Notes: generated by a model from the sequence alone, not told the origin. A stretch of DNA of 64,000 nucleotides from an uncultured Bacilli bacterium (GCA_934167665.1 CAKPLN010000001.1:341331-405330), one strand, 5' to 3'; shown: positions 15,623-57,729, counted from the stretch's first letter. Made by a program: numbers and translations.

Positions 15623-16164
15623 TAAGTCTAACTCCTTTAAATTAATAAAATTATACCATATATCAATCGTTTTCTAAAGAACTATCTATCTGAAAAAAAT
15701 ATAAAAAGAATATGATAAAATGAATAATATAAGGAGATGTTAATATAAGTAAGGAAAAATCTTTTTATATTGATAAGCCTTTATTACAAAGAATAGTTTT
15801 ATTTTTAACTGGTTTTAGTAATTTTCTAATAGGTTATGCCCCATATTTTATATTTAAAGATGATAAATCAAAAGACTATCAAATAGAGTTTGTTTAAAAA
15901 GGTGCAGCTTTTGGTTTAGCATTTACCATAATTGGACTATTCCTTGGTTTAATTTCATCAATTTTATAAAATTAAATTAATCAATCACAAAAAATCTCGT
16001 TTAACTTATAAAAAGAAATGAGGTTTTTTTAATATTTTAAATAAACAAAATGATATAATAGAAACTGAAAGACAAATAGTAATTTGTAATTTAGTTCTCT
16101 CTTAATAGATTTGTATTAATAATTAAGAGGATAAAAAAATAATATTTTGTGTTAAATAGTAAAG

Positions 16165-16195
16165 TTGTTTACATTTTTAAAATGTAAAATATATT
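16165..16195 (+). promoter_or_regulatory. Promoter with an overlapping 20 bp palindrome (TTTACATTTT-AAAATGTAAA), a likely autoregulatory operator of the XRE gene
   Basis: TTGTTTACATTTTTAAAATGTAAAATATAT lies upstream of 16250. The palindrome arms are a perfect 10/10 match. Confidence 0.45.
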
Positions 16196-16249
16196 TGATA
16201 GTAAAATAATAATAAAAAATGTATAGTTTTTTGTGAGAGGAGAAAGATT

Positions 16250-16657
16250 ATGGATTTAGGCAAAAAAATTATTGAAATGAGAAAAAAAGCAAAACTTTCA
16301 CAAGAACAACTTGCAGAAAAACTAGATGTTACCAGACAAACTATATCTAATTGGGAAAATGGCAAATTTTATCCTGATATTGATGCATTAGTTAAAATTA
16401 GTAAATGTTTTAATATTTCGTTAGATGACTTACTAAGTTACGATAATAAAGTTTTGCAATATTTAAAAGATAGCACAGATGTTGTAAAAAGTAATAAGAA
16501 ATTGCTTTATGCGATTTTATTAAATATTCTAATTATTATTCTATTTATAATAATAGGAATAACTGCAAATGAAAGTATTTCAATTATAGTAATAGTATTT
16601 ACTATTTCTATTATTAGTTTTTCTTATTTATTTTATCAAATCATAAAAAAAATATAG
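16250..16657 (+). CDS. Membrane-tethered XRE-family regulator (HTH plus 2 C-terminal TM)
   Basis: HTH_XRE (LSQEQLAEKLDVTRQTISNWENG) followed by a hydrophobic C-terminus. Confidence 0.7.
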   Translation: MDLGKKIIEMRKKAKLSQEQLAEKLDVTRQTISNWENGKFYPDIDALVKISKCFNISLDDLLSYDNKVLQYLKDSTDVVKSNKKLLYAILLNILIIILFIIIGITANESISIIVIVFTISIISFSYLFYQIIKKI

Positions 16658-16666
16658 GAGGAAATT

Positions 16667-16990
16667 ATGAATTATATTTTATTAGCAATATTTATAGCAA
16701 TATATCTAATAGGTTTAGTTGCTACAATTTATCAAGTTTATAAAATAACTGTTATAGATTCAAAAGCAAGAGGAATTAGCCATCCAAAATTAATGGGATT
16801 ACTAGCAACCAGTGGTAAAAGTTCAGAAGGAATTATTCTTTATCTATTGCATAGAAGAAAATATCCAATAAAAAATATTTCGAAAGAAGAACAAAATGAA
16901 ATAGAAAGAAGAAAGAAAATTGTATTAGTAGGAATTATATTTATGATTATTGGTGCAATTGGATTTGTATTCTTTATAGTAAAAATATAA
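16667..16990 (+). CDS. Small 2-TM membrane protein, PLDc_N-like (putative)
   Basis: Strong ribosome-binding site AGGAGG 8 nt upstream of the start, 9 nt after the XRE stop. The loop HPKLMGLLATSGKSSEGIILYLLHRRKY resembles the PLDc_N motif. Confidence 0.35.
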   Translation: MNYILLAIFIAIYLIGLVATIYQVYKITVIDSKARGISHPKLMGLLATSGKSSEGIILYLLHRRKYPIKNISKEEQNEIERRKKIVLVGIIFMIIGAIGFVFFIVKI

Positions 16991-17025
16991 TCATATATAA
17001 TATTAAAAAATTGCAATTAATCGTC

Positions 17026-17055
17026 GAGATCAACTTTAATAGTTGGTCTTTTTTA
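17026..17055 (+). terminator. Rho-independent terminator of the XRE operon
   Basis: AGATCAAC-N7-GTTGGTCT followed by TTTTTT. Confidence 0.5.
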
Positions 17056-17109
17056 CTTTTTATAAATAGGATGATTTTATATATAAATATTAATATATGT
17101 AAAAAAGCA

Positions 17110-17217
17110 GAATAAGAAACTTGTGCAACTACACTAAACTTTTCCTTATTTCATAAGGGTTTAGTGTTACACAAGACTGATTTCGTACCGTTGACGTAGA
17201 GGTCTACGACTTTTTTT
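17110..17217 (+). ncRNA. Candidate small RNA: long imperfect hairpin (17120-17175) followed by an intrinsic terminator (17195-17217)
   Basis: CTTGTGCAACTACACTAAAC ... GTTTAGTGTTACACAAG inverted repeat, then ACGTAGAGGTCTACG plus T7. No ORF in the segment. An AT-rich stretch that could hold a -10 lies upstream. Confidence 0.25.
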
Positions 17218-17325
17218 CGGCAATAACAATTCATATGAATCAATCTATATAAATATTATCATAAAAAATTAAAGACTTTTATAAAAATTTATTGTATAAT
17301 TATAATTGAAAGGAGTAAGCTTAAT

Positions 17326-17559
17326 ATGGAAAAAGATAATAATAATGTAGTAAGATTTTTGTTAACATTCTTTTTAGGATGGATTGGTAGTATAATTATT
17401 AATCATACTAATTTAAAACCTGCAGGATATAGAAGTAGAACTGCAGCATATTTTTTCCTTACAATTGTTACTTTTGGAATTTATGGTCTTGTTGCTAGTA
17501 TTTGCAACTTAACATTTGATCCAAACAAATCTAGTAACATTGGATATGTTAAGGAATAA
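17326..17559 (+). CDS. TM2-domain-like small membrane protein
   Basis: Strong ribosome-binding site AGGAG. VRFLLTFFLGWIGSIIINHTNL...YFFLTIVTFGIYGLVASI resembles the TM2 domain. Confidence 0.4.
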   Translation: MEKDNNNVVRFLLTFFLGWIGSIIINHTNLKPAGYRSRTAAYFFLTIVTFGIYGLVASICNLTFDPNKSSNIGYVKE

Positions 17560-17573
17560 TCTTATATTTAACT

Positions 17574-17598
17574 ATGAGGATATTATTCCTCTTTTTTT
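17574..17598. terminator. Bidirectional terminator
   Basis: GAGGA-TATTATT-CCTC followed by T7. Confidence 0.5.
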
Positions 17599-17602
17599 AT
17601 AA

Positions 17603-18249
17603 TTAAAAATCATCGTCTTTTGATTTAGAATCTCTATCTATTTCTGCAGATCTATTTTTAGTTTCTAATATACCTCTTATTTGTTCTTCATCTAAAATAT
17701 TCTTACCATATAATTCATAAGCAACTGGATAATATTTATCACGTTTTTCTTTATTACCCCACATTTTATCTACAAAGAAGTGATATAGATTGTTAATTTT
17801 ATTTTTATATTTTATAGATATTGTTAATCGTTACCAATAACTTTTATATTTATCTTCATAAATGTTATTATGTAAAGAAAAATCTGAATACATTCTACCT
17901 GAAATACCGCTACCACTTAAATAAACTTCAAAGGAAATGTTTTACCAATAAATTGTTTACCAAAATCATAATAATATGGTGTAGGTATTCCACTACCAGA
18001 TGTTGATTTTCCAAACACTCTTAAAATATCTTCATCTGTTAATTCTTTTTCTAAAATTATTTTTGTATTTCCAAATTTTCGTTTTGAATACAACATCTCA
18101 AAAATGTCTAAAATACTAGATTTTCCAATATTATTTTTTCCTATAATTACATTTATAGGTTTTATATTATTTATACATCCAGATTTAAAACATTTATAAT
18201 CTTCAAATTTAATACATTTTATATCCATACTAAACGCTCCTTCCAACAA
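17603..18249 (-). pseudogene. Remnant of an AAA/OLD-like (AAA_21-type) ATPase
   Basis: Intact N-terminal 110 aa with Walker A (IGKNNIGKSSILD) and the typical first strand (MDIKCIKFEDYKCF). It then continues in two other frames to 17603 with stops. There is no Walker B or nuclease part. Confidence 0.5.
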
Positions 18250-18356
18250 ATTTTTTAAGTATTATAACTTTATTTTGCCGTTTGTTTATTCATAATAATT
18301 CATTATTTTTATGTTATAATTAATATAGTTTTAGTTCTTAAGGAAAGAGGTACTAT

Positions 18357-18815
18357 ATGCATTTTTATGAATTAATTAAAAAATTAACTGAAGATAAAAA
18401 AACAATTATCTATGTTGATATGGACGGTGTAATTGCTTCTTATGATTTTGGAAAGCCACTTGATTTTAAAAATAAAAGACCTTTAACTACAAATATTAAA
18501 ACATTAAGTAAATTAAGCAATCTAAAAAATGTTGAACTACATATATTATCAGTTTGTAGATTTAATAATGAGGTAAATGAAAAAAATGAATGGTTAAATA
18601 AATATGCCCCATTTTTTGAAAAAGATAAAAGGACTATTATTCCAAAAGAAAGTTATCCGCATTATTCATCAAAAGAATTAAAATTAAATTATTTAAAATC
18701 ATTAAAAAATGATGAACAAATTATTTTTATTGATGATGACAATGAAGTTTTGAGAACTGTTCGTAATGGTTTGAAAAACATAATGTTATATCAAGATTCT
18801 GAATTAATAGATTAG
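18357..18815 (+). CDS. HAD-superfamily 5'(3')-deoxyribonucleotidase-like protein
   Basis: HAD motif I (IIYVDMDGVIAS) and a C-terminal FIDDD motif, an NT5C-like pattern. Confidence 0.55.
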   Translation: MHFYELIKKLTEDKKTIIYVDMDGVIASYDFGKPLDFKNKRPLTTNIKTLSKLSNLKNVELHILSVCRFNNEVNEKNEWLNKYAPFFEKDKRTIIPKESYPHYSSKELKLNYLKSLKNDEQIIFIDDDNEVLRTVRNGLKNIMLYQDSELID

Positions 18816-18830
18816 AAGAGAGAAATATAT

Positions 18831-19289
18831 ATGTTAAGTTATGAAGGAATATTTTTTGAAGCAGATATGGTTGATTTGATACATTCTTTAGAATCAGAAA
18901 AATTAGCCAGAGTTAATGATGAAATACATTGTACTTTTAAATATCATCCAACAACTGATGAAATTTTCAATGATATAGTTGGAAGAACATTTGAAGTATA
19001 TTTAATAGGTTATGGTAATGATGGGCAAAACAGTGGATTTGAAATATTATTTCCAGATGAATTAAAAGATTATTATATAAATTATGATGAACAAAATCCT
19101 ACAGTCTTAAAGACACCTCATATTACTGCATCACTAGCTGAAGGAGCAAAAGCATCAAATACAAAAAATCTTAATTTTAAACCCTTAGAAAAACCTGTTA
19201 AGTTAGTAGGAAGATTTGGTTATTGGATTAAAGGTGAGAATGAAGAATACTTATCTTATGAACCATATTCTAAAGGTAAAACAAGATAA
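18831..19289 (+). CDS. 2H phosphoesterase superfamily-like protein (LigT/YjcG-like), putative
   Basis: Two H-x-T-x motifs (HCTF near residue 33, HITA near residue 97) in a protein of about 150 aa. It is co-transcribed with the HAD gene (16 nt gap). Confidence 0.35.
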   Translation: MLSYEGIFFEADMVDLIHSLESEKLARVNDEIHCTFKYHPTTDEIFNDIVGRTFEVYLIGYGNDGQNSGFEILFPDELKDYYINYDEQNPTVLKTPHITASLAEGAKASNTKNLNFKPLEKPVKLVGRFGYWIKGENEEYLSYEPYSKGKTR

Positions 19290-19365
19290 TATTTTAATAC
19301 ACACGCTAATTGATTATGTCAATTTGCAAGTGCGTTTCTAAATTATCAAAATTTAGTATAAACAA

Positions 19366-21209: not shown

Positions 21210-21283
21210 TGGTGCCGAAAGACAGAATTGAACTGTCCGCTGATCCTTACCAAGGATCTGTTTTACCACTAAACTATATCGGC
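21210..21283 (-). tRNA. tRNA-Thr (anticodon GGU)
   Basis: Folded by hand: GCCGATA acceptor stem, GTTT/AAAC D-stem, GATCC-TTGGTAA-GGATC anticodon arm, GACAG-TTCAATT-CTGTC T-arm, ACCA end. 74 nt. Confidence 0.85.
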
Positions 21284-21351
21284 AACTACACATTTATATT
21301 ATCGTAAATACTATAAAAAAACAATTGTTAATTTACTTATTACTAAAAAAT

Positions 21352-21426
21352 TGGTGTTCAAGGCGGGAATCGAACCCACACCATTTCCTTCGGGGGGAAA
21401 TATTCTATCCATTAAAATACTTGAAC
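21352..21426 (-). tRNA. tRNA-Arg (anticodon CCG), with an unusual C at position 33
   Basis: Perfect GTTCAAG/CTTGAAC acceptor stem, TTTCC-CCCCGAA-GGAAA anticodon arm, GTGGG-TTCGATT-CCCGC T-arm, ACCA end. 75 nt. The D-stem is weak. Confidence 0.65.
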
Positions 21427-27201: not shown

Positions 27202-27669
27202 CTAAGAAATTATCATCATTATCATTTCTTCTACCTTATCAATAATCATTCTTTTATTTTCTTCTCTACTCTCTCTATCAACTATCACAGTAGCATTATA
27301 ATACTTATTAACGTTTTTATCATAAACACTAATATAAACAGTATTATCATTACCAATAAGGTTATTTTTATCAACTCGTCCTAATTTACCTGTAACACCA
27401 ACTCCAAAATCACTATCAGCAAATAAACTAATATTACGACTCATCTCACAAGCTGTTTCCATACTATAAACACTATATTTATCTATAATATCTTTAGATA
27501 CTCCCATCTTAATTTTATATTCATTAGCATAAGTAACTGCACTATATTTTAAAACATCACTAGCTCCCTCAATATTTGTAATAGCATTAACAATACCACC
27601 GCCAGTACAAGACTCCATTGTTGCGATAGTCTTCTTTAATTCACTTAACTTAGACACTAAATCTTTCAT
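27202..27669 (-). CDS. CinA C-terminal domain / PncC-like nicotinamide-nucleotide amidohydrolase
   Basis: ATMESCTGGGIVNAIT motif. Confidence 0.65.
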   Translation of the reverse strand: MKDLVSKLSELKKTIATMESCTGGGIVNAITNIEGASDVLKYSAVTYANEYKIKMGVSKDIIDKYSVYSMETACEMSRNISLFADSDFGVGVTGKLGRVDKNNLIGNDNTVYISVYDKNVNKYYNATVIVDRESREENKRMIIDKVEEMIMMIIS

Positions 27670-33192: not shown

Positions 33193-34065
33193 ATGAAAAG
33201 AAATTATAAAACCATAATAATTATAAGTCTATTAGTATTATTAATAATATATATCCTAAATTCTAATATGATAGCAACAAGTATTATAAATTATACTAAT
33301 CTCTTTATTACTAAACTTTTCCCTTCTAGTTTTATTATTTTTATTTTCTCATCATTATTAATTGATTATGGTATCATTCAATTACTTAGTAGTACTAAAA
33401 TAAATGGAAATATTATCTATGTCAGTCTAATGAGCTTAATTAGTGGTTTCCCAAGTGGTGTAAAATATACAAAGGAACTTTTAGATAAAAATCTAATTTC
33501 TCCTAAAACAGCCAACTATTTAATAACCTATACCCACTTTCCTAATCCCATCTTTCTATTAGGCCCAATATCATCAATATTAACTAAACCCCTAGCCTTA
33601 AAACTACTTATGATAATTATTATAAGTAATACCATTATAGCCATCATATTTAAACCTAAAAAAGAAACATTCACTCTTCCTAAAACAAGTAACACTAGTT
33701 TTGCCACATCTTTAAAAAAAGCAACTTACGCATCATTAAAAACATTAACTATAGTTTATAGTTCATCCCTTTTTTTCTATTTAATAAGTATTATTATCAC
33801 TAAATACATTAGCCTAGATCCCTTAAATTATGTAATTTTAAATGGTCTATTTGATCTAACCCAAGGAATATTTTCATCTCCAATAATATCAAGTATCACA
33901 ACAAGAGCTATTGTTATTTTATTTTTCCTATCATTTGGAAGTATTTCTATACATATCCAAACAAAAAGTATCATTGCTGATACTTCTATAAACTATAATA
34001 AATATTTACTAGGAAGAGTCTTAGAAACAATAATAGCCTTATCTTTATTTATAATATTAAACTAA
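33193..34065 (+). CDS. Polytopic membrane protein (about 8 TM), hypothetical, possibly YlbJ-like
   Basis: Highly hydrophobic. No peptidase A24 (prepilin peptidase) motifs were seen. Confidence 0.35.
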   Translation: MKRNYKTIIIISLLVLLIIYILNSNMIATSIINYTNLFITKLFPSSFIIFIFSSLLIDYGIIQLLSSTKINGNIIYVSLMSLISGFPSGVKYTKELLDKNLISPKTANYLITYTHFPNPIFLLGPISSILTKPLALKLLMIIIISNTIIAIIFKPKKETFTLPKTSNTSFATSLKKATYASLKTLTIVYSSSLFFYLISIIITKYISLDPLNYVILNGLFDLTQGIFSSPIISSITTRAIVILFFLSFGSISIHIQTKSIIADTSINYNKYLLGRVLETIIALSLFIILN

Positions 34066-34709
34066 AAATAATTGATTGGACAAACTATATCTATTCCATA
34101 TCTAGTTCCTAAATCAGGATGGTAAAAACCAACATAGAAACTAAAGATACTATTATCGGTATCAATAATAATATTGTTAATTCTAAAATCATAGATTTTG
34201 CATCCTTCTCCCCCACACTTTGCAGAGTTACCATTATATCCAAAACCTAAATCAGGTAATTTATAAACTGTATAGTCATCACTACCCTCATCAGTACCAT
34301 AACTAATCTCAAAAACATCATCATGATCAGAACTACAAACGCCATCTTCAGAATCAATACATTCCCCAAAATCTCTAGCATAAGATGCCCCAACTGTTAA
34401 TTTTTTCTTAGCACCATCACGAAATGTCAAATATACAACATATTTTTTTTCGTAATCGCTATTAGAATTAGATATATTTTCATCGATCTTAGCATCAACT
34501 AACCCTTTTTTTATAAGATCATCTTGTATTTCCTTTGTTAAAAGGTTTTTATATGTAACAATCTTATCTTTATCAGATTCAATATTCTGTTTATTTTTAT
34601 ACTTATTAACAGTCCCATACATAGATACCATTAATATTGTCATTAATATAAAACTAACTAAAATTTCAACTGCTGTCATTCCTTTATTATTTAATCTTAC
34701 CCTTTTCAT
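34062..34709 (-). CDS. Pseudopilin / minor pilin with a class III (prepilin) signal
   Basis: NNKG-MTAVE: Gly at -1 and Glu at +5, followed by a hydrophobic helix. Confidence 0.6.
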   Translation of the reverse strand: MKRVRLNNKGMTAVEILVSFILMTILMVSMYGTVNKYKNKQNIESDKDKIVTYKNLLTKEIQDDLIKKGLVDAKIDENISNSNSDYEKKYVVYLTFRDGAKKKLTVGASYARDFGECIDSEDGVCSSDHDDVFEISYGTDEGSDDYTVYKLPDLGFGYNGNSAKCGGEGCKIYDFRINNIIIDTDNSIFSFYVGFYHPDLGTRYGIDIVCPINYF

Positions 34710-35335
34710 TACTTCTTCACCTCTATTGTTGAATAAGCATAGTAATCATTATCATCCTTAGTTCTATGATACTCAATTATTAATCTATATTTAGCCCCAT
34801 TCAAAGAAGCCGTATTAATATATTCAGGCAAATAAGCAACATAATCTGATAAATTGCCACTAAAAATACCTTGACCAAGTTCTGTTGCCGCTCTTTCCTT
34901 AAAGTCTGTTAATCTATATGCAGTTAAATATATACAAGGCTTATCATCAGCTGTATTAGTAATATTACCATTACTATCTCTAGCGGCAACTTGTAATTTA
35001 CTAACAAGATTATTACATAAATTTTGTGTAGTAGCATCATAAGGAATATCAGTAGTACAATCAAATCTATGATAACTATTATTAGCTATATCATACGAAA
35101 TGCTACCGGCAGTAGAAACATCTCCAAATGAAACATCATCACTTTGAATAATCTTCTTAAACCAATAAGTACCATATTTACCGTCAATATCATCGTAAAC
35201 TTCTCGCTTTTCATATTCCGCAACTATTGGAAATAAGTTGGTATATATAATGGAAAATATAGTCATTACAAATACCGTAACTATAAGGGTCTCTGCGAGC
35301 ATAAAACCCTTGTCGTTTAATTTGAATTTTTTCAT
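34709..35335 (-). CDS. Pseudopilin / minor pilin with a class III signal
   Basis: NDKG-FMLAE-TLIV. Its stop overlaps the start of the downstream pseudopilin gene. Confidence 0.65.
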   Translation of the reverse strand: MKKFKLNDKGFMLAETLIVTVFVMTIFSIIYTNLFPIVAEYEKREVYDDIDGKYGTYWFKKIIQSDDVSFGDVSTAGSISYDIANNSYHRFDCTTDIPYDATTQNLCNNLVSKLQVAARDSNGNITNTADDKPCIYLTAYRLTDFKERAATELGQGIFSGNLSDYVAYLPEYINTASLNGAKYRLIIEYHRTKDDNDYYAYSTIEVKK

Positions 35336-35422
35336 AACTCTCTCCTTGCTATTATAATAAAACTATTATATAATAAAATATAGTAAAATACCATATCAAA
35401 GTAAACAAAAGGGGTTGAAAAA

Positions 35423-38400
35423 ATGGTAGAAATGGAAGTAAGAAAAGTAACAAAAGGTGTTGAATCTAACATGGTAGCTTTCGACTTTGAGCGTACACCA
35501 ATTACTCAAATCGCCGATTATATCATTATAACTGCCTCAAGAAACAATGCTTCAGATATTCATTTTGATCCACGTGATGAGAGCATGATGGTAAGATTCC
35601 GTATTGATGGTGACTTGCAAGATTATACAAATATTCCAAAACTTTACGAAAGAACCCTAACTACTCGTCTAAAACTTTTAGCTGGAATGAATATTACAGA
35701 ATCTCGTCTACCTCAAGATGGTGCCATAAAAGGTGAATTTGGTGGCCAATATCTTGATATGCGTGTTTCCTGTCTTCCACTTAACACAGGTGAAAAAATA
35801 GTTATTCGTATCTTAGATTATACAAGAAGTTTAAAAGGTGTTGAACATTTAGGATTCAATCAAACTAATTTAAAGAAAATCAAAAGAATGATGGGTGTCC
35901 CAAATGGTATCATTTTAGTTACTGGTGCTACAGGTTCTGGTAAATCTACGACAGTATATTCAATACTACAGGAATTAAATCGCCCTGAAACAAACATTAT
36001 TACTGTTGAAGACCCAATCGAAATGGACATCGAAGGAATGAATCAAGTTCAAGTAAATGCTGAAATCGGTATGACATTTGCCGCTGCTTTAAGATCTATT
36101 TTGCGTCAAGACCCAAATATTATACTAATAGGAGAAATTCGTGACTCAGAAACTGCTCAAATAGCAGTTCGTGCTTCAATAACAGGTCACTTAGTTCTAT
36201 CAACTATCCACACCAACAATGCCCTTTCAACAATTGAACGTTTACTAGATATGGATGTAGAGCGATACTTACTATCAACATCTCTTACTGGAATAATTGC
36301 TCAAAGACTTGCCAAAAAACTATGCACACATTGCCGCATAGAAAGAGAAACAACAAAATATGAAAAAAAAGTCTTTAAAAAATTCATGAATCGTGACATT
36401 GAAAAAATCTACGATGCCAACCCAAAAGGCTGTGAAAACTGCCGTAACGGTTATAAAGGACGTATCGCTGTTCACGAAGTCCTAGAAATTGATGATGAAA
36501 TTAGAAATGCTTTGGCCATTAATAAAATGACTAAAGAAGAACTATCTAAAATGGTATACGGATCAAAAACTATAACAATGCTTCAAGATGCCTTAGGAAA
36601 AGCTATATCAGGCCTAACAAGTTTTGAAGAAGTATACAGAGTAATAGAAATTGAAACAGAACCAGATGATGATACTGCTTATCTAACTAGAGCCATAGAA
36701 GATGTTCCAGAAGTAATTAAACCAACTTCACCAGTTCAGACAGCACCAAAAGCTACTGAAACTTCACCTTTACAAGTAACTCCAACAACAGTATCTACAA
36801 CTGTACCCGTAACAACTCCTGCTACAGTAGCTCCTTCAAAAGTCAGTACACCAGTTAATACTAATAAAGCTGTAAATACTCAAAATACTGAAATAAAAAC
36901 TCCAATTTTATTAACTAAAGAGCAAGAGCAGCAACAAGCAGAAAATGCCAAGACTAAATTAAAAGAACTAGTCGAAGCAGAAAATGCCAAAAAACTAGCT
37001 GAAGTAATATCAAAACCACAAGAAGTACAAAGAGCAAAGCTAGTTGTACAAGATCCAAAACTAAATCCAGTACCTGTACAAACAAAAACAAATACCGAAA
37101 ACGAAACACAAAATAAAGAAAAAGCTGCTGAACAGCCTATTCCTATTCCTATTCCTATTCCACCACAAAGATTATATCAATTACCTAGATCATCAAATGA
37201 ACAGTTACCTAAACAAGTAAAAACAACTTCACCTAAGATTGAAAAAATGGAGAAAGCTATTCCAGAGTTAAATATAAAAATTAAAACTAATGATAAGAAA
37301 GCTACAATAAAATCATTAAGTGGTTCACCAATATTTGAAAATAGTAACCTCTTTGAAGAAAAAGACAAAGTCAAAGCCATTGACCTTAATAAAATAAGTC
37401 AATCAATAGACTTAAAGAAAGAAGAAAAAGTTATTAATCCTCTAAAACCAACCGTTAAACCAGATGAAAGCAATGATAGAGGAAATAACATCCCTGTAAT
37501 TATTGAAACATTCTCAATAGATGACAGTCTAAGATCAGCTCCAAAGTTAAATGCCATCAAGCTTGATCAAATAAAAAATAATGAAACAGTTCCTACTACT
37601 AATAAAGAAAAAGTTGCAGTAAAAAAAGAAACAACAAATAACAGTACTGAAAAGTTCGAAATAGAAACACCAACAACAAATACAAGTAAGACTGATAATA
37701 AAGATAGTGAAAGGAAAGAACAAGTTGGAACAACAAGTATTAAACCAGTAGCCTCTAAAACCACTACTAAAAAAATAACTAAAGCTAATGTAGAAACTGT
37801 TAAACCTACTACTCCTGTAGTTGAACCAAAAGTAGTGCCTACTACCAAACCAATATTACAACAACCAGTAGTAAATACAGTTAAATCAGTAGTGCCTATT
37901 GTTAATACTCTAACTACAAAAGCTAATATTGAAACGGTTAAACCAACAGTTCCTATTACGAACCCTACAACTGCAAAAGTTAATATCGAAGCTGTTAAAC
38001 CTATAGCTCCTGTTACTACTCCTATAGCTACAAAAACTAATATTGAAACTGATAAACCTACTACTACTGAGGTTGTACCAAAAGTAGCGCCTACTACAAA
38101 ACCAGTATTGCGACAACCAGTAATAAATACAGTTAAATCAGTAGTGCCTATTGTTAATACTTTAACTACAAAAACCAATATTGAAGCTGTTAAACCTACT
38201 ATTCCTGTGATTGTACCAAAAGTAGCACCTACTACAAAACCAGTATTGCAACAACCAGTAATAAATACAGTTAAATCAGTAGTGCCTATTGTTAATACTT
38301 TAACTACAAAAGTTAATATCGAAGCTGTTAAACCTATAGCTCCTGTTACTACTCCTATAGCTACAAAAGCTAATATTGAAACTGTTAAACCTATAGCTCC

Positions 38401-40054
38401 TGTTACTACTCCTATAGCTACAAAAACCAATATTGAAACTGATAAACCTACTATTCCTGTGGTTGTACCAAAAGTAGCACCTACTGCAAAACCAGTATTA
38501 CAACAGCCAGTAGTAAATACAGTTAAATCAACAGTTCCTATTACTACACCTGCAGTTATTAAAACTAATGTTGATGTTAAACCTATAACTTCTGTTACTA
38601 CCCCTATAGCTGCAAAAGTTAATATCGAAACGGTTAAATCAACTACTCCTGTAGTTGAACAAAAAGTAGTACCTACTACAAATATTCCTATACCTAGTAT
38701 TGTATTGGAAACTAAACCTACTACTCCAACTACCTCAGTAGCAACTAGCACTAATAAAGGAAAAGAAGTAACACCTATAGACAAAGTAAAAACACCTATT
38801 CCTAATATCATAACAGAAGAAAAAATAAGTAATGATAAAAAAACAACTGTAATAAATTCACCAGTTAATTTAACATCGCAAGTTTTGCCTGAAGCAATCA
38901 CTAAAAAACCAACTGAAATCAAAACTGATGGTAAGAAGTTAGAATTTCCAACAACTAAAGTTCCAGAAAAGACTTTTCTAATAACTGATGCAAAAGTTAA
39001 TGTAATAAAGCCTACAGCTACACCTATGACATCTTCTCTCATAACAGAAGCAAAAACTAATAATACATTAACTCCAGCAACAAAAGAAATAAAACCACTT
39101 GTTACTGAAGCCAAAGTAGCACCTAACATTAAAACAGAGAAACAAATAAGTGACACAGATGCTTCTAAAATTAAAGCAATTTTAACCTCAACAGAGAAAA
39201 AACCATTTATAACTGAATTTAAGGCAACACCAACGACTGCATCACCATTAAAAACAATTGAAAAAAATTCTCTTATTGCCGAGGTTAAAACTACTACACC
39301 TCTAATATCTCAATCAATAAGTAAAACTCCTTTAGCTAGCCAAGCAAAAACATCGCTTGAGAAAAAACCTTTTATTACAGAAGCCAAGATTACTCCTACA
39401 AAACCAGTAAGTAGTACAATGCAACCTACAAAGGAAATACAAAAACCACTTGTTACTGAAATAAAACCAAATACAGTACCTCTTACAGAAATAAAAGTTG
39501 CTCCAAAGAGATCCTTTATTACTGAAGAAAAAGTTGTTCCTTTAAAATCTACTCCAACTATTCCAACTGTTGAGAAAAAGGAGTTAATTAAAGAAGTTAA
39601 AATGACTACTCCTATTAAACAAACAACTAATACAACGCCACTACCAAAAACGACACTTCCAGAAAAAAAGCCTCTCATAACAGAGACAAAGCCTAATGTA
39701 TTAGTAACACCAATCACAAAACCTCTTATCACTGAAGAGAAGATTAATCAGGTACCTAAAACAACTGCTCCTACACTTCCACCTATTGAGAAAAAACCAC
39801 TTGTTCCGAAAATAAAAAATAAGGAAGAAAAAATAGAAGTCAAAAAAGATAACAGTTCAATAAATATTACTGATAACAAAAACAAAGTAAATACTGCTTC
39901 TACTACACCAATTAAAACTATAACCCCAGCAGTTCAGGTACCAAAACAACAAGAAAATAAAATAGCAATCAAGAAAGAGCCAACTATTATGAAAAAAGCT
40001 GAAAAGTCTAATTCAGATACAGATAGTGACTTACCAATTTTAGGAGAAGATTAA
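35423..40054 (+). CDS. GspE/PilB/ComGA-family secretion ATPase (about 410 aa) fused to a Pro/Thr/Val/Lys-rich tandem-repeat tail of about 1130 aa
   Basis: Walker A GATGSGKST, Asp box TVEDPIE, RQDPNIILIGEIRD, His box TIHTNNA, and tetracysteine CTHC...CENC. The uninterrupted frame then runs 3.4 kb in AT-rich DNA and ends at a TAA. Confidence 0.85.
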   Translation: MVEMEVRKVTKGVESNMVAFDFERTPITQIADYIIITASRNNASDIHFDPRDESMMVRFRIDGDLQDYTNIPKLYERTLTTRLKLLAGMNITESRLPQDGAIKGEFGGQYLDMRVSCLPLNTGEKIVIRILDYTRSLKGVEHLGFNQTNLKKIKRMMGVPNGIILVTGATGSGKSTTVYSILQELNRPETNIITVEDPIEMDIEGMNQVQVNAEIGMTFAAALRSILRQDPNIILIGEIRDSETAQIAVRASITGHLVLSTIHTNNALSTIERLLDMDVERYLLSTSLTGIIAQRLAKKLCTHCRIERETTKYEKKVFKKFMNRDIEKIYDANPKGCENCRNGYKGRIAVHEVLEIDDEIRNALAINKMTKEELSKMVYGSKTITMLQDALGKAISGLTSFEEVYRVIEIETEPDDDTAYLTRAIEDVPEVIKPTSPVQTAPKATETSPLQVTPTTVSTTVPVTTPATVAPSKVSTPVNTNKAVNTQNTEIKTPILLTKEQEQQQAENAKTKLKELVEAENAKKLAEVISKPQEVQRAKLVVQDPKLNPVPVQTKTNTENETQNKEKAAEQPIPIPIPIPPQRLYQLPRSSNEQLPKQVKTTSPKIEKMEKAIPELNIKIKTNDKKATIKSLSGSPIFENSNLFEEKDKVKAIDLNKISQSIDLKKEEKVINPLKPTVKPDESNDRGNNIPVIIETFSIDDSLRSAPKLNAIKLDQIKNNETVPTTNKEKVAVKKETTNNSTEKFEIETPTTNTSKTDNKDSERKEQVGTTSIKPVASKTTTKKITKANVETVKPTTPVVEPKVVPTTKPILQQPVVNTVKSVVPIVNTLTTKANIETVKPTVPITNPTTAKVNIEAVKPIAPVTTPIATKTNIETDKPTTTEVVPKVAPTTKPVLRQPVINTVKSVVPIVNTLTTKTNIEAVKPTIPVIVPKVAPTTKPVLQQPVINTVKSVVPIVNTLTTKVNIEAVKPIAPVTTPIATKANIETVKPIAPVTTPIATKTNIETDKPTIPVVVPKVAPTAKPVLQQPVVNTVKSTVPITTPAVIKTNVDVKPITSVTTPIAAKVNIETVKSTTPVVEQKVVPTTNIPIPSIVLETKPTTPTTSVATSTNKGKEVTPIDKVKTPIPNIITEEKISNDKKTTVINSPVNLTSQVLPEAITKKPTEIKTDGKKLEFPTTKVPEKTFLITDAKVNVIKPTATPMTSSLITEAKTNNTLTPATKEIKPLVTEAKVAPNIKTEKQISDTDASKIKAILTSTEKKPFITEFKATPTTASPLKTIEKNSLIAEVKTTTPLISQSISKTPLASQAKTSLEKKPFITEAKITPTKPVSSTMQPTKEIQKPLVTEIKPNTVPLTEIKVAPKRSFITEEKVVPLKSTPTIPTVEKKELIKEVKMTTPIKQTTNTTPLPKTTLPEKKPLITETKPNVLVTPITKPLITEEKINQVPKTTAPTLPPIEKKPLVPKIKNKEEKIEVKKDNSSINITDNKNKVNTASTTPIKTITPAVQVPKQQENKIAIKKEPTIMKKAEKSNSDTDSDLPILGED
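37136..37159 (+). repeat. (CCTATT)x4 hexanucleotide microsatellite encoding PIPIPIPI
   Basis: Seen directly. The repeats are in frame. Confidence 0.9.
37780..38660 (+). repeat. Interleaved tandem repeats of 138 nt (46 aa) and 57 nt (19 aa) inside the ATPase-fusion gene
   Basis: The block CAACCAGTA(G/A)TAAATACAGTTAAATCAGTAGTGCCTATTGTTAATACT recurs at about 37863, 38115 and 38259. Each unit begins with K-x-N-I-E-x-V-K-P. Confidence 0.85.
39180..39800 (+). repeat. Second, looser repeat family (EKKP[FL]ITE[AEF]K units) in the C-terminal tail
   Basis: GAGAAAAAACC(A/T)TTTAT(A/T)AC(T/A)GAA recurs at about 39190, 39360, 39663 and 39788. Confidence 0.6.
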
Positions 40055-40087
40055 AAAAAAGAGATTGATTAAAATTCAATCTCTTTT
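40053..40087. terminator. Bidirectional rho-independent terminator
   Basis: A8-GAGATTGA-TTAAAAT-TCAATCTC-TTTT between convergent genes. Confidence 0.7.
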
Positions 40088-40116
40088 CATTTGTCAAAAA
40101 AAAGAACTATAAAATT

Positions 40117-41478: not shown

Positions 41479-42572
41479 TTTACTTCCCTTTCCAACACAC
41501 CTACTATAATTCCATTACTTATATACCATTTATCTTCTGGAATAAAAAGATGCTCATTCTTTAAAGCTAACAAACCATTTTTTAATAATTCTTTATAATC
41601 ATAAACTTCTATTAAATTAATACCAAACCTATTTTTAAAAAGTTCTAAGTCAATACCATCAGATTTTCGTAAATTTAAAATTACCTGATATTCTATCTCA
41701 TCATGCCAACTCAAAACCTCTACATCATTACCATATTCATTTATAAAATATCTATTAATAGATCTAGTATTATTCTTACGTACATTTTCTAAATAAGAAC
41801 TAGCTCCAAGCCCAAATCCATAATAATGTTCATTATCCCAATAACAAGTATTATGTCTCGACTCATATCCTTCCTTCGCAAAATTACTAATTTCATAATG
41901 CTTATATCCCTTACTTTTAAGAACTTCACAAATCAGTTTATACATATCATTATCTAAATCTTCTGAGATATTTTTAATACCCTTAATTTTTAATTTAGTG
42001 TTATCCTCAATAATTAATGAATATGTAGAAATATGAGGAACATCAAGACTCAAAATATAGTTAATATCATTCATCAAAATATCTAAATCTTCACCAGGAA
42101 TGGCATAAATTAAATCAACATTTACATTAGTTAACCCTATCTTCTTAGAATATTCAATTATATCGGTAACGTTTTTAATAGAAATGTTTCGCTCTAAAAT
42201 AGATAAATTCCCCTCATCAATTGATTCTATACCAAATGACAATCTGTTAACACCATAGTTTTTATATAAATCGAGTTTTTCATATGTTGTACTTTCAAAA
42301 TTACCTTCAATAGTAAACTCACAATCTAAGCTCTTATTAAATATTTTTGTTATTTCAAAGAGTCTAATCAGTTGTTCTATATTCAAGCAACTAGGTGTTC
42401 CACCACCAATATAAATAGTATTCACTAACTCGCCCTTATATAAAGTTAAAATTTCTTTTTTTAAAGCCTCTAAATACCTATCAACAAAATTCTCATTATA
42501 AAACAATTTACAAAAATCGCAATAAGAACAGATTTTATCACAAAATGGAATATGTATATATACACTTATCAT
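41475..42572 (-). CDS. hemW: Radical SAM heme chaperone HemW (oxygen-independent coproporphyrinogen III oxidase-like)
   Basis: CDKICSYCDFC is the CxxxCxxC motif. The gene lies downstream of lepA, as in other Bacillota. Confidence 0.8.
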   Translation of the reverse strand: MISVYIHIPFCDKICSYCDFCKLFYNENFVDRYLEALKKEILTLYKGELVNTIYIGGGTPSCLNIEQLIRLFEITKIFNKSLDCEFTIEGNFESTTYEKLDLYKNYGVNRLSFGIESIDEGNLSILERNISIKNVTDIIEYSKKIGLTNVNVDLIYAIPGEDLDILMNDINYILSLDVPHISTYSLIIEDNTKLKIKGIKNISEDLDNDMYKLICEVLKSKGYKHYEISNFAKEGYESRHNTCYWDNEHYYGFGLGASSYLENVRKNNTRSINRYFINEYGNDVEVLSWHDEIEYQVILNLRKSDGIDLELFKNRFGINLIEVYDYKELLKNGLLALKNEHLFIPEDKWYISNGIIVGVLEREVK

Positions 42573-43144
42573 TTGTGTTTTCTAGCACCTTCATCAACAA
42601 CAAGTCTTTCGGTATCATCATCTTTTCTATCATTTCCATCATCAGCAAGTATACTAGCAGCATCTACTATAGACTCTTTAGTCACATCAGTTGCTCCTCT
42701 TCTAATACCTTCAACTGCTGCTTTTTTATTTTGACCATACTGCTTGCGAACATCACCATGTAACTCAGAACCTAAATTTTTCTCATTTAAAGCTCCATAG
42801 ATAGTTGAAGCTGAAACTTCAATACCTGTTTCATCTTTTACTTGTTTAAGTGTTAATCCTTCTTCTACTAACTTTCCTGCTAGTTCACAAGCTTTATCCG
42901 TTGATATTTTTTTATGTCCCAAATTGCCACACGTTTTTTTAGCAGCCAACCAACGAGCCTTCTTAGTTTCAAGAACCTGCTTTTGCGTCTCTGGATCCAA
43001 CCAAACACCAGCTCTACCATTTAAATATCTATTAATTGTTGTTTTAGATACAGCATATTTACCAGCTAAAAAATCCATTGTAGCTTTATCATTATTAATA
43101 TATTCAAATGCAATCGCATATAACGTTATTATGTCAAAACTCAT
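42569..43144 (-). CDS. HTH-domain protein inserted between lepA and hemW (possibly derived from a mobile element or phage)
   Basis: N-terminal HTH (AVSKTTINRYLNG), a basic/acidic tail, and visibly higher GC than the surrounding sequence. Confidence 0.35.
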   Translation of the reverse strand: MSFDIITLYAIAFEYINNDKATMDFLAGKYAVSKTTINRYLNGRAGVWLDPETQKQVLETKKARWLAAKKTCGNLGHKKISTDKACELAGKLVEEGLTLKQVKDETGIEVSASTIYGALNEKNLGSELHGDVRKQYGQNKKAAVEGIRRGATDVTKESIVDAASILADDGNDRKDDDTERLVVDEGARKHK

Positions 43145-55162: not shown

Positions 55163-55729
55163 TTAAGCTTCAACGCAAACTGGAACAGTTGGATTAGCTA
55201 CAAGAATATCATTTACAGCCTTCTTTTCAGGATCAGTTAAAGTCATTTTAACATTTCCTCTAACTAAAGCATCAGATTGAATTCCAGAAGCAACTGTATC
55301 AGTAATTCCATGAGTACCATCATTTAAAGCAACATAGAACTTAGTAATACGACGTTCTCCTGAAGTAGAAATGTTAACTCTTACATAACCTTTTACGTTA
55401 CGATTACCCCAAGATGACTTACCACCTTGATCAACCAATACTGGATAATTAGCAGAACTAGTATCAATTTGAACATAGTAATCACCATCATCAACTGCAG
55501 AAGATACTACTGAATCATTTACACCAACCTTACAAGATAATCCATCAGCTGTCCATAATGTTTTAACAGCATTAGCATAAGACTTAGCAATATCTACAAA
55601 AGTATCCTTTCTTGAATTTTCAATTGTTCTAGATACTGAAGGAATCGCAACCATCATTAAGATACCCATAATTACGATTACTGCAAGTAACTCAACCAAT
55701 GTAAAACCTTTACTATTGATCTTTTTCAT
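55163..55729 (-). CDS. Type IV pilin / ComGC-like major pilin
   Basis: KG-FTLVE-LLAVIVIMGIL class III signal with Glu at +5. Confidence 0.75.
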   Translation of the reverse strand: MKKINSKGFTLVELLAVIVIMGILMMVAIPSVSRTIENSRKDTFVDIAKSYANAVKTLWTADGLSCKVGVNDSVVSSAVDDGDYYVQIDTSSANYPVLVDQGGKSSWGNRNVKGYVRVNISTSGERRITKFYVALNDGTHGITDTVASGIQSDALVRGNVKMTLTDPEKKAVNDILVANPTVPVCVEA

Positions 55730-55885: not shown

Positions 55886-56497
55886 CTATTCTATAGCATA
55901 AACATGTGTAATTCCTGCTGAGCAATCAACAACACTATGATCTATTCTTGAACTAAGCGTAACTCCTTTATTACTATTAGCTTCTAAAGTAGCCTGATCA
56001 TTACCATATGCATAGTTATAATCAGATAAATTAAATAAATTACTATTTTCAACATTTTCAACTTTATCAGTTGCTCCATCAGCATATAAAGTTGTTACCT
56101 TAACTAAAGGAATACCTCTAGGCTCAGTACTAGCTGAGATTCTCTCAATTAATTGAACATAGTATTCATATTCATTATTTACTCTTTTTATAACAACATA
56201 AGACTGATTCTTTAAATACTCACCACCATTAGGTGGATCTTCAAATTCTGAGTTATCTAAATATGCCAAGTTCATTACAACACATTGATTTTCTAAAGGC
56301 TTTACAATACCAGTACTACTACCTCTAAGTTTATATTCAGCCGTTGTTGCAAGCTTCTTAGCATCTTCAACATAAGTAGTAGCCCTATTTTTATAAAGAA
56401 TACCCGTAACATTAGGAATCGCAATTGACATAATAATTCCTAAAATAACCATTACTGCCAACAACTCTACTAAAGTAAAACCCTTTTCATTTCTCAC
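55886..56497 (-). CDS. Type IV pilin-like protein
   Basis: KG-FTLVE-LLAVMVILGII. Confidence 0.7.
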   Translation of the reverse strand: MRNEKGFTLVELLAVMVILGIIMSIAIPNVTGILYKNRATTYVEDAKKLATTAEYKLRGSSTGIVKPLENQCVVMNLAYLDNSEFEDPPNGGEYLKNQSYVVIKRVNNEYEYYVQLIERISASTEPRGIPLVKVTTLYADGATDKVENVENSNLFNLSDYNYAYGNDQATLEANSNKGVTLSSRIDHSVVDCSAGITHVYAIE

Positions 56498-56550: not shown

Positions 56551-57729
56551 TTAATTTAATATTTTCCTCATGTTTTCAATCTCTAACATCGTCGTATTAG
56601 TGTAAAGTGAATCATCAAATAAGAAATCATACCTAAAAAGACTAAAACCATTATAATATTTAAGATTCCTTGATAATATTATTTCTCGCATAATGATATT
56701 ACTATTATTAATCCATTCATTAGAGCCACTTCTAGCATATTTATCAAATGCTCCTACTTTATAAAAAGCTAGGGCAACATTTAACTTAATATCATCATTT
56801 TTAATAAGACTCTCCCACTCTTCTATAACATGTAAAAAAGCCTTAGTCTCATTAAAAAAGCCATAATAAACTTGTGGCATAATAAAGTCAACATACTCCT
56901 TACTGCTTAACCACGCTTTAACATCAGCTGAAATCACCCCATAATTATTTTCAATATTACCATCAGGACTAACTCCAAATATAACATTATGTTTAAAACA
57001 CACCTTATGAACTCTAGAAATCATTCTGTTAATAATCATCAAATGATACTTATCAAAACTAATATTATCATGATCTTTTAAATAATTAACGTAATCATTA
57101 TAATCCAAATCATAACTAGGATAAAAATAATCATCAAATAAAATTCCATCCACTTGATAATTACTTACAACCTCCAAAACTCCATCCACAATTAAATCCT
57201 CAATCTCCCTTTTAGATGGGTTATAATAAACTCCAACATCTTCATATAAATAATCAGTACCCAAATATTTATAAGCAGGGTTCGCCTCACTAATATCTCT
57301 TCCAGAACTCCTAACTCGATAAGGATTAATCCAACCATAGATATACATATTATTAGCCTTACACTGCTCAATAAAATACTCTAAAACATCAAATCCCGGA
57401 TCAACGCCCTCCTTACCACTAACTGTGCTACTCCAAGGAAAAATATTAGACTTATATATAGCATCAGAAAAACTTCTTATCTGTAAAATAATAGTATTAA
57501 ATCCCAAATCCTTAATATTTTTAATCATTAAATCAATATTTTTCTTCCTTAAATCACCATTAGAATTACCAACATATTTATTTAACTCAATATAACTAAC
57601 AAAAATAGCTCTTACTTCATTTTTATCTTTTGAAGAGTTACCATTAATAGTAGTAACCTTACTAGTTACCAATATGAACACTATACTTAAAACAATTAAT
57701 AGAACATACTTTTTCACTCTAATCACCAA
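56551..57729 (-). CDS. GHL10 (DUF187, YngK-like) glycoside-hydrolase-like secreted protein
   Basis: Signal peptide, and RAIFVSYIE...FNTIILQIR...DAIYKS...PWS matches the GHL10 N-terminal core. Confidence 0.6.
   Translation of the reverse strand: MVIRVKKYVLLIVLSIVFILVTSKVTTINGNSSKDKNEVRAIFVSYIELNKYVGNSNGDLRKKNIDLMIKNIKDLGFNTIILQIRSFSDAIYKSNIFPWSSTVSGKEGVDPGFDVLEYFIEQCKANNMYIYGWINPYRVRSSGRDISEANPAYKYLGTDYLYEDVGVYYNPSKREIEDLIVDGVLEVVSNYQVDGILFDDYFYPSYDLDYNDYVNYLKDHDNISFDKYHLMIINRMISRVHKVCFKHNVIFGVSPDGNIENNYGVISADVKAWLSSKEYVDFIMPQVYYGFFNETKAFLHVIEEWESLIKNDDIKLNVALAFYKVGAFDKYARSGSNEWINNSNIIMREIILSRNLKYYNGFSLFRYDFLFDDSLYTNTTMLEIENMRKILN

Follow-up and report, generated by a model that had tools for sequence, protein, structure and literature searches.

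A PilB/GspE-type ATPase of uncultured gut Bacilli carries a long, predicted disordered C-terminal tail with conserved short motifs

The DNA analysed here is a stretch of 64,000 nucleotides from an uncultured Bacilli bacterium (GCA_934167665.1, CAKPLN010000001.1:341331-405330; called the window below, with positions counted from its first letter), which has a G + C content of about 27% and carries its genes mostly on the minus strand. On the plus strand lies a gene for a filament-assembly ATPase of the PilB/GspE class, which stands back to back with two pseudopilin genes and continues past the ATPase core into a low-complexity C-terminal tail (Table 1). A sequence-only reading of this DNA had pointed out a complete ATPase core fused in frame to a repeat tail of about 1130 residues, two divergent genes with class III signals and two more pilin genes 15 kb away, and our analysis bore this out: a single open reading frame (ORF) of 1543 amino acids (aa) holds the T2SSE domain with all catalytic motifs and the tail, which is predicted to be disordered, and the signal motifs were found in the pilin genes. 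Its feature began at 34062, which takes in the two divergent pilin genes; the gene itself begins at 35423. The architecture is real, apparently undescribed and lineage-wide rather than unique, and we consider it about an even bet (a probability of roughly 0.5) that the tail is a cytoplasmic, flexible and multivalent tether or docking arm on a genuine filament-assembly motor of this class.

The Pfam domain T2SSE (PF00437) covers aa 24-406 of the protein (E = 4.2e-119; 397.9 bits against a gathering cut-off of 24.9; profile positions 5-370 of 370). Besides the Walker A sequence, alignment to GspE placed an Asp box at aa 193-200, Walker B at aa 233-241 and a His box at aa 255-265, and the tetracysteine of the GspE/PilB subfamily, a putative zinc motif, appears as CTHC/CENC. 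The closest structures are those of GspE and PilB/PilF (E about 1e-100), which align with aa 24-408 of the query only; in the best solved relative, GspE 4pht, chain residues 117-497 match this segment with E = 3.9e-103. The N1E/GSPII/MshEN N-terminal domain was not found in the ATPase, in which merely 23 aa precede the Pfam match, and the truncation is also evident from the models, where the match begins at position 105 of GspE, position 172 of PilB and residue 117 of 4pht. Among the NCBIfam models, GspE (TIGR02533) and PilB (TIGR02538) gave 469.2 and 449.4 bits, under their equivalog cut-offs of 630.25 and 675.65 because the match starts so far inside each model, and ComGA (NF041000) gave 267.5 bits over aa 34-298 only, under its cut-off of 300. 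Together with the missing N-terminal domain, these scores therefore indicate that the core is a PilB/GspE-type extension ATPase lacking the N1 domain and not a canonical ComGA, and the ComGA label under which the protein had also been placed is not supported. An exact copy of the window protein occurs without a name in the NCBI and ENA collections.

The tail (aa 413-1543) is composed of 16.6% T, 14.1% K, 11.6% P, 10.4% V and 9.3% I, has a net charge of +50, and contains no Cys, no Trp and 12 aromatic residues (F/W/Y) in 1131 aa. We found no membrane-spanning segment in it, the best 19-aa hydropathy window being 0.95, and neither a signal peptide nor a sorting signal; the terminus reads ...DLPILGED and an LPXTG-like end is absent. 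It is predicted to be intrinsically disordered by AlphaFold2 (AF2) models, which were built from shallow alignments of 5 and 8 sequences: the model of aa 485-727 (mean predicted local distance difference test score, pLDDT, 57) has one charged helix at aa ~499-530 (pLDDT 77-88) and is otherwise coil, and that of aa 760-1543 (mean pLDDT 35) has no secondary structure. Two tandem-repeat families had been described in the tail. Both exist, and family A is truly tandem and gives rise to most of the length differences between alleles; family B, with a 41-nt motif as its DNA unit, is dispersed rather than strictly tandem, with spacings that are all multiples of 3.

The sequence-only reading had also held that so long an open frame cannot arise by chance, which our counts supported in part. 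The 1131 tail codons contain no in-frame stop, against 107 and 148 stops in the other two plus-strand frames and 81 expected from the composition, and 88% of third codon positions are A or T. However, the antisense strand of the tail region is also open over 529-580 aa, so that composition alone can yield long ORFs and conservation across species is the stronger argument. We rejected the 529-aa antisense ORF (37567-39156, minus strand) as a gene, since the stop-free stretch measures 580 aa here and 302 aa in a close allele. A second long antisense ORF within the tail region (39310-39732, minus strand) has 140 aa; both antisense ORFs are rich in V, G, T, F and L, and they are shadows of the A-rich, stop-poor sense composition. 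No other ORF of the window carries a comparable segment rich in proline and threonine (PT-rich), and we therefore rejected the idea of a genome-wide compositional habit.

A fusion created by assembly across repeats had been put forward as one explanation, and we considered with it a missed stop or frameshift and the merging of two genes. Short-read metagenome assemblies can mis-join repeats, and a 761-aa database protein (P0155) begins within the tail. However, a search with the tail alone returned 34 near-identical conspecific proteins of 1327-1685 aa, on contigs of up to 349 kb, which are all in frame with PF00437, have an identical junction and all terminate in DLP[IV]LGED. When two of these alleles (L081 and L082, on contigs of 138 kb and 294 kb) were compared with the window as DNA, the neighbouring genes were the same and the differences were substitutions and in-frame indels only, most of the indels falling in repeat family A and within a 48-aa unit from the motif-B region. 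The junction between core and tail (aa 405-430) contains no repeats and is conserved across species, and the orthologues in 61 other species are fused too. P0155 was rejected as a separate tail gene: at 3900-4100 of L083 (ENA NODE_1674, coverage 5x) a run of 10 N cuts the orthologous gene into proteins of 620 and 761 aa, and P0155 is the product of this scaffold gap. Because the variants are in frame, the alleles have the same context and the only split gene comes from the gap, an assembly artefact is excluded for the architecture, if not for the exact repeat copy number, and a spurious fusion is the explanation that we find hardest to credit. As a side observation, the exact window protein falls in a 90%-identity cluster that is represented by a 55-aa fragment; a search with the core gave only relatives of at most 85% identity (~596 aa) and missed the near-identical long proteins, probably on account of this fragment representative.

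We scanned the lineage with one genome per species, which gave 80 loci with flanks of up to 10 kb per side from entries titled 'uncultured Bacilli bacterium', 'Mycoplasma sp. CAG:877', 'uncultured Tenericutes' or 'Erysipelotrichaceae'; we take this lineage to be an RF39-type group. The set included 61 complete orthologues from related gut genome bins with a core identity of 73-90%. A C-terminal low-complexity tail of at least 100 aa was present in 58 of the 61 (median 229 aa, maximum 1147 aa), and relatives at 58-78% identity have long C-terminal low-complexity tails likewise. The comparison of fused with separate genes in related genomes, which the sequence-only reading had named as a check, thus came out in favour of fusion, the lone split case being the 10-N gap. 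In the core tree, very long tails occur in at least two separate branches and differ in chemistry, being K-rich in the window, L001, L069 and L005 and D/E-rich in L035 and L039. The tail is a trait of the whole lineage, of which the window clade is the extreme. It is possible that aa 413-600 share ancestry with the ~170-aa tails found in the 596-aa relatives, which would suggest an extension past an ancestral ...Q[IL]PK[ILV] end, but the alignment is too ambiguous. A scan of JGI metagenomes with the tail block aa 495-720 found no relatives, and a homologue search with the same block gave no matches even though identical sequences exist, a failure of the tool or of low-complexity handling that is not evidence of absence.

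Alignment of the long-tail clade (the window, P0157, L001/P0156, L069, P0158 and L002) revealed discrete islands that are invariant while the spacers between them cannot be aligned. Directly after the core there is an island with ...DDTAYLTR..., which is followed by the LT.EQ..QA helix. In aa 539-720 the islands are KLVV..PN.NP, LYQLP[KR]S, EKMEKAIPELNI, SPI..E.N.F.EKDKV..IDxNKISxSxDLKK, PLxPT[IV]K, P[IV]IIE[TS]F..DD and PKLN.IK, and part of the tail islands can be seen in L005 too. The motif K[PS][FL][IV][TS]E.K (consensus EKKPFITEMK) occurs in 6 strict and 12 loose copies in the window tail and in 2-4 copies in each other clade member, where 0.1-0.2 are expected by shuffling, and it is absent elsewhere in the window. 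Every member of the clade is closed by an acidic ...D.D(G)EL..LGED peptide. Across the 61 species, 20 have [ILVM]P[KRTNQ][ILVFY] within the last 10 aa, against an expectation of 1.3 from local shuffles (maximum 6 in 2000) and 2.7 from internal windows of the same tails. The alignments indicate that the tail holds short conserved motifs amid non-conserved sequence.

Table 1. Positions in the window of the ATPase gene, its parts and the features that surround it.
Feature	Position	Strand	Basis
Whole gene, PilB/GspE-type ATPase and predicted disordered C-terminal tail	35423..40054	+	1543 aa plus stop; ORF listing
ATPase core, aa 1-412 (N2E-like and C-terminal ATPase domains)	35423..36658	+	Pfam, solved relatives, NCBIfam
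Walker A GATGSGKST, aa 168-176	35924..35950	+	motif reading
Tetracysteine motif, CTHC aa 301-304 ... CENC aa 337-340	36323..36442	+	aligned to GspE Cys motif
C-terminal tail, aa 413-1543, low complexity, predicted disordered	36659..40051	+	composition, AF2
Charged E/K/Q/A-rich predicted helix, aa ~499-530, LT.EQ..QA... kept in long-tail clade	36917..37012	+	alignment, AF2
Block of conserved short islands, aa 539-720	37037..37582	+	six-species alignment; columns invariant at 46% identity
Repeat family A, tandem PT-rich units of 19/46 aa (57/138/390 nt)	37740..38680	+	repeat scan, allele comparison
Repeat family B, 12 dispersed copies of [KS][KP][PS][FL][IV]TE.K	38948..39751	+	repeat and motif scans
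Acidic C-terminal peptide SNSDTDSDLPILGED	40007..40051	+	...D.D(G)EL..LGED in other long-tail species
Pseudopilin gene 1, 208 aa, leader MKKFKLNDKG|FMLAE	34709..35335	-	weak ComGD N-terminal match; syntenic in all related loci
Pseudopilin gene 2, 215 aa, leader MKRVRLNNKG|MTAVE	34062..34709	-	Pfam N_methyl E 4.9e-4; syntenic
Two further type IV pilin genes, 188 and 203 aa, KGFTLVELL leaders	55163..55729 and 55886..56497	-	Pfam, NCBIfam
Divergent intergenic region, 87 bp, promoter-like hexamers on both strands	35336..35422	.	consensus matches only
Hairpin, 13-bp stem, terminator-like, between ATPase stop and convergent thymidylate kinase gene	40056..40088	.	sequence

Class III signals (G-1, E+5 and a hydrophobic helix) were found in four genes of the window. 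Pseudopilin 2 scored 20.0 bits with Pfam N_methyl, just below the cut-off of 21.2, and pseudopilin 1 had no Pfam match; the pilin pair near 55 kb matched N_methyl above its cut-off, with E values of 6.7e-8 and 1.2e-9, and also exceeded the cut-off of NCBIfam IV_pilin_GFxxxE (TIGR02532), and we regard this pair as candidates for the major pilins of the ATPase's system. The ATPase gene has a ribosome-binding site of its own, as had been read from the sequence, in the form of AAAGGGG 8 nt ahead of the ATG inside the intergenic region, and it does not lie in a comG operon with an adjacent comGB. In the related loci the gene order is nearly invariant and runs from a YlbL-like protease through a YlbJ-like membrane protein and the two pilins to the ATPase on the other strand and thymidylate kinase (tmk); a HemN-like gene and LepA lie farther along the conserved locus.

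Several further observations were made in the surroundings. The YlbJ-like gene (33193-34065, plus strand) and pseudopilin gene 2 converge and overlap by 4 nt, so that a terminator cannot fit between the two genes; most related loci are packed equally tightly here. The second pseudopilin has expanded from ~200 to 475-841 aa in nine loci (L002, L028, L036, L037, L038, L054, L063, L066 and L076), where a pilin leader is followed by a large G/T/S/N-rich C-terminal part, and these proteins resemble 'giant' minor pilins of modular build. The L076 ORF that corresponds to the first pilin gene is likewise long, at 809 aa, with a predicted start unlike a pilin leader. Immediately upstream of the 55-kb pilin pair are genes for a GHL10 glycosyl-hydrolase-like protein (E = 3e-40) and a YetF/DUF421 membrane protein (56551-57729, minus strand). 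A gene with a CinA ('competence-damaged') domain (27202-27669), the YlbJ-like sporulation membrane protein and a weak SpoIIID-like helix-turn-helix protein (42569-43144) fit a reduced lineage in which some genes linked to sporulation and competence have been retained. GC content is lowest in the window at 16000-19300 (0.23), where the GC skew is locally reversed and genes lie on the plus strand. This segment, which may be the remnant of a mobile or defence island, encodes an XRE-type helix-turn-helix protein carrying a membrane tail (16250-16657), small membrane proteins, the fragment of a truncated AAA_15 ATPase (17917-18249) and two ORFs that are NT5C-like or unknown; two tRNA genes follow at 21210-21426.

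We propose that the ATPase would serve a Com- or type IV pilus-like system of this uncultured low-GC gut lineage, and that the motor would have lost the N1E docking domain of its relatives and carry a disordered cytoplasmic extension at the C terminus instead. Evolving fast through slippage and duplication, the tail would have grown to ~1,130 aa in the window clade. A hexamer would bear six such tails, each presenting conserved short linear motifs, namely the proximal charged helix, the island block, up to 12 KKPFITE.K repeats and the acidic C-terminal peptide with its hydrophobic-Pro-x-hydrophobic pattern, and these motifs would bind partner proteins or the membrane platform. We infer a cytoplasmic location for the tail because the ATPase domain must be cytoplasmic and an export signal is absent, and a C-terminal substitute for docking is plausible because the N-terminal docking domain is lost. 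The case for selection on the tail rests on two things, the frame that is kept open in nearly all species, in DNA of a type that should contain a stop roughly every 14 codons, and the conservation of the motifs. A bolder form of the proposal, which we find doubtful, would have an order-level gut lineage rewire its filament motor by replacing the N-terminal docking domain with an FtsZ-like C-terminal linker plus peptide, elaborated to a multivalent scaffold of ~1,100 residues (six tails with up to 12 KKPFITE.K each) that could seed a hub or condensate in which DNA-uptake or envelope proteins gather around the motor.

Several observations weigh against the tether proposal. Among the Pfam-scanned ORFs of the window there was no T2SSF platform, no peptidase A24 and no PilM-like protein, in agreement with the earlier statement that platform and prepilin peptidase genes are missing nearby, and in the 80 related loci the gene order includes no extra conserved gene beside the ATPase, the ORFs of these flanks not being Pfam-scanned. 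The strict C-terminal motif is matched by just about one third of the species. One orthologue (L074, 406 aa) has no tail and another (L066) has a tail of ~50 aa, so that in some species the motor can do without it. By the Nei-Gojobori method, the ratio of nonsynonymous to synonymous rates (dN/dS) was 0.04-0.05 in the core and 0.59-0.80 in the tail, where it is not below the values of the wrong frames (0.41-0.76). Close alleles therefore give no sign of constraint at the amino-acid level, and we rejected dN/dS as a test of tail constraint because it is uninformative in sequence of such composition. Repeat copy numbers may be wrong in short-read assemblies, and the low AF2 confidence is weak proof of disorder because the alignments were shallow.

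The main rival of the tether reading is that the tail is a nearly neutral, functionless low-complexity expansion, generated by replication slippage in an AT-rich, fast-evolving reduced genome on a motor that is an ordinary PilB. This would account for a tail length that ranges from 0 to 1147 aa, for a composition that differs among branches, for repeat copy numbers that vary within a species, for the orthologues with little or no tail and for a tail dN/dS (0.6-0.8) that cannot be told from wrong-frame values. However, a neutral tail would hardly keep its frame open over hundreds of codons in 58 of the 61 species, nor would it keep islands invariant between species whose flanking sequences cannot be aligned; both the motif repeats and the C-terminal peptide occur far more often than shuffled sequences predict, and no other gene of the 64 kb has a comparable segment. 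We think that neutral expansion is less probable than a tether, although it remains a serious competitor. Predicted disorder, a high P/T/K content with a net charge of +50, and variation that affects length more than sequence would also suit an entropic bristle or spacer without specific ligands, which would hold the motor away from, for example, the nucleoid, ribosomes or neighbouring machines, or tune the dynamics of the hexamer. We consider a pure bristle unlikely, because it leaves the islands, the KKPFITE.K repeats and the conserved C-terminal peptide unexplained and because composition and charge are not kept across branches, some being K-rich and others D/E-rich. The PEVK-like bristle tail suggested by the sequence-only reading thus stands as regards disorder and low complexity, and the conserved short motifs point to more than a bristle.

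A PT-rich composition is typical of Gram-positive wall-spanning linkers, and the tail might accordingly be a mucin- or PEVK-like spacer that is exported or cleaved off. However, it has no signal peptide, transmembrane segment or sorting signal, it follows a domain whose binding of ATP has to take place in the cytoplasm, and its end is not LPXTG-like; we regard an extracellular location as very improbable. Mycoplasma terminal-organelle proteins HMW1, HMW3 and P65 are acidic or proline-rich scaffold proteins of the cytoplasm, and a PT-rich composition therefore does not imply an extracellular position. Bristle, exported spacer and assembly artefact are progressively less likely in this order.

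GspE, PilB and ComGA are among the best-studied bacterial machines, and here is a lineage in which absence of the N-terminal domain together with a long, predicted disordered C-terminal arm with conserved peptides is the rule. The literature that we searched contained nothing on disordered tails in this ATPase family, in line with the earlier view that the architecture is undescribed, and nothing on pili in the RF39-type lineage, whose published genome surveys do not discuss them. If the tether reading is true, the lineage would represent a second, unexplored solution to motor docking or regulation, with motifs that serve as docking sites in place of the N-terminal coupling usual in type IV filament motors, and a clear bacterial case of a cytoplasmic disordered region of giant size in which linear motifs recur. 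The finding also gives a concrete way into the biology of a gut group that is abundant but uncultured, DNA uptake as nutrition or gene exchange being examples. Even a tail without function would be a striking instance of low-complexity sequence that has expanded unchecked on a motor which looks essential and tolerates it.

PilB, GspE and ComGA are regarded as compact, folded hexamers, and the picture of their docking rests on N-terminal domains and actin-like partners. PilB and GspE dock via N-terminal domains to actin-like PilM or GspL, and the N1E/GSPII/MshEN domain docks to GspL/PilM or binds cyclic di-GMP. The N2E and C-terminal ATPase domains of the window protein align end to end with those of GspE, PilB and PilF (4pht/4kss, V. 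vulnificus/V. cholerae GspE; 5it5, T. thermophilus PilF; 5tsg, Geobacter PilB), and the window motor shares with them all catalytic and tetracysteine motifs and the association with class-III-signal pilin genes. Unlike them, it has no N1E/GSPII/MshEN domain and no adjacent platform gene, and it bears the 1,131-aa predicted disordered tail. Solved GspE/PilB-type chains (385-913 aa) align to within a few residues of their own C-termini, whereas the window protein continues; the added domains found in solved relatives are N-terminal to the core and folded. Three proteins with 43-47% identity (P0222, P0261 and P0264) have C-terminal extensions of the T2SSE core too, but they keep an N-terminal domain, with the core starting from ~aa 150-180. 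The extensions of these three and of P0231 and P0201 look like response-regulator receiver domains (...VLVVDD...KP...LL.R...), not low-complexity tails.

ComGA, of ~310-360 aa, is tail-less. The window system resembles that of ComGA in Bacillus and Streptococcus in its single-membrane lineage, in the lack of an N-terminal domain and in ComG-like pseudopilins (weak ComGC/GD/GE matches), but it has no comGA-comGB-comGC operon; two of its pilin genes are transcribed divergently from the ATPase gene, and the other two lie 15 kb away. With HMW1, HMW3 and P65, as far as their descriptions rather than their sequences go, the window protein shares cytoplasmic Pro-rich low-complexity segments and a related low-GC lineage, but those proteins are not fused to an ATPase. 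A further parallel is FtsZ, whose linker and C-terminal peptide D-I-P-x-F-L, bound by actin-like FtsA, follow the folded part of the protein. Both would combine a folded nucleoside triphosphatase core with a variable disordered linker and a short conserved terminal peptide, and the D/Q-[IL]-P-x-hydrophobic end of the tail resembles the FtsZ peptide. The likeness is one of analogy and not of homology: the families are unrelated, and the linker described here is up to three or more times longer and contains internal repeated motifs.

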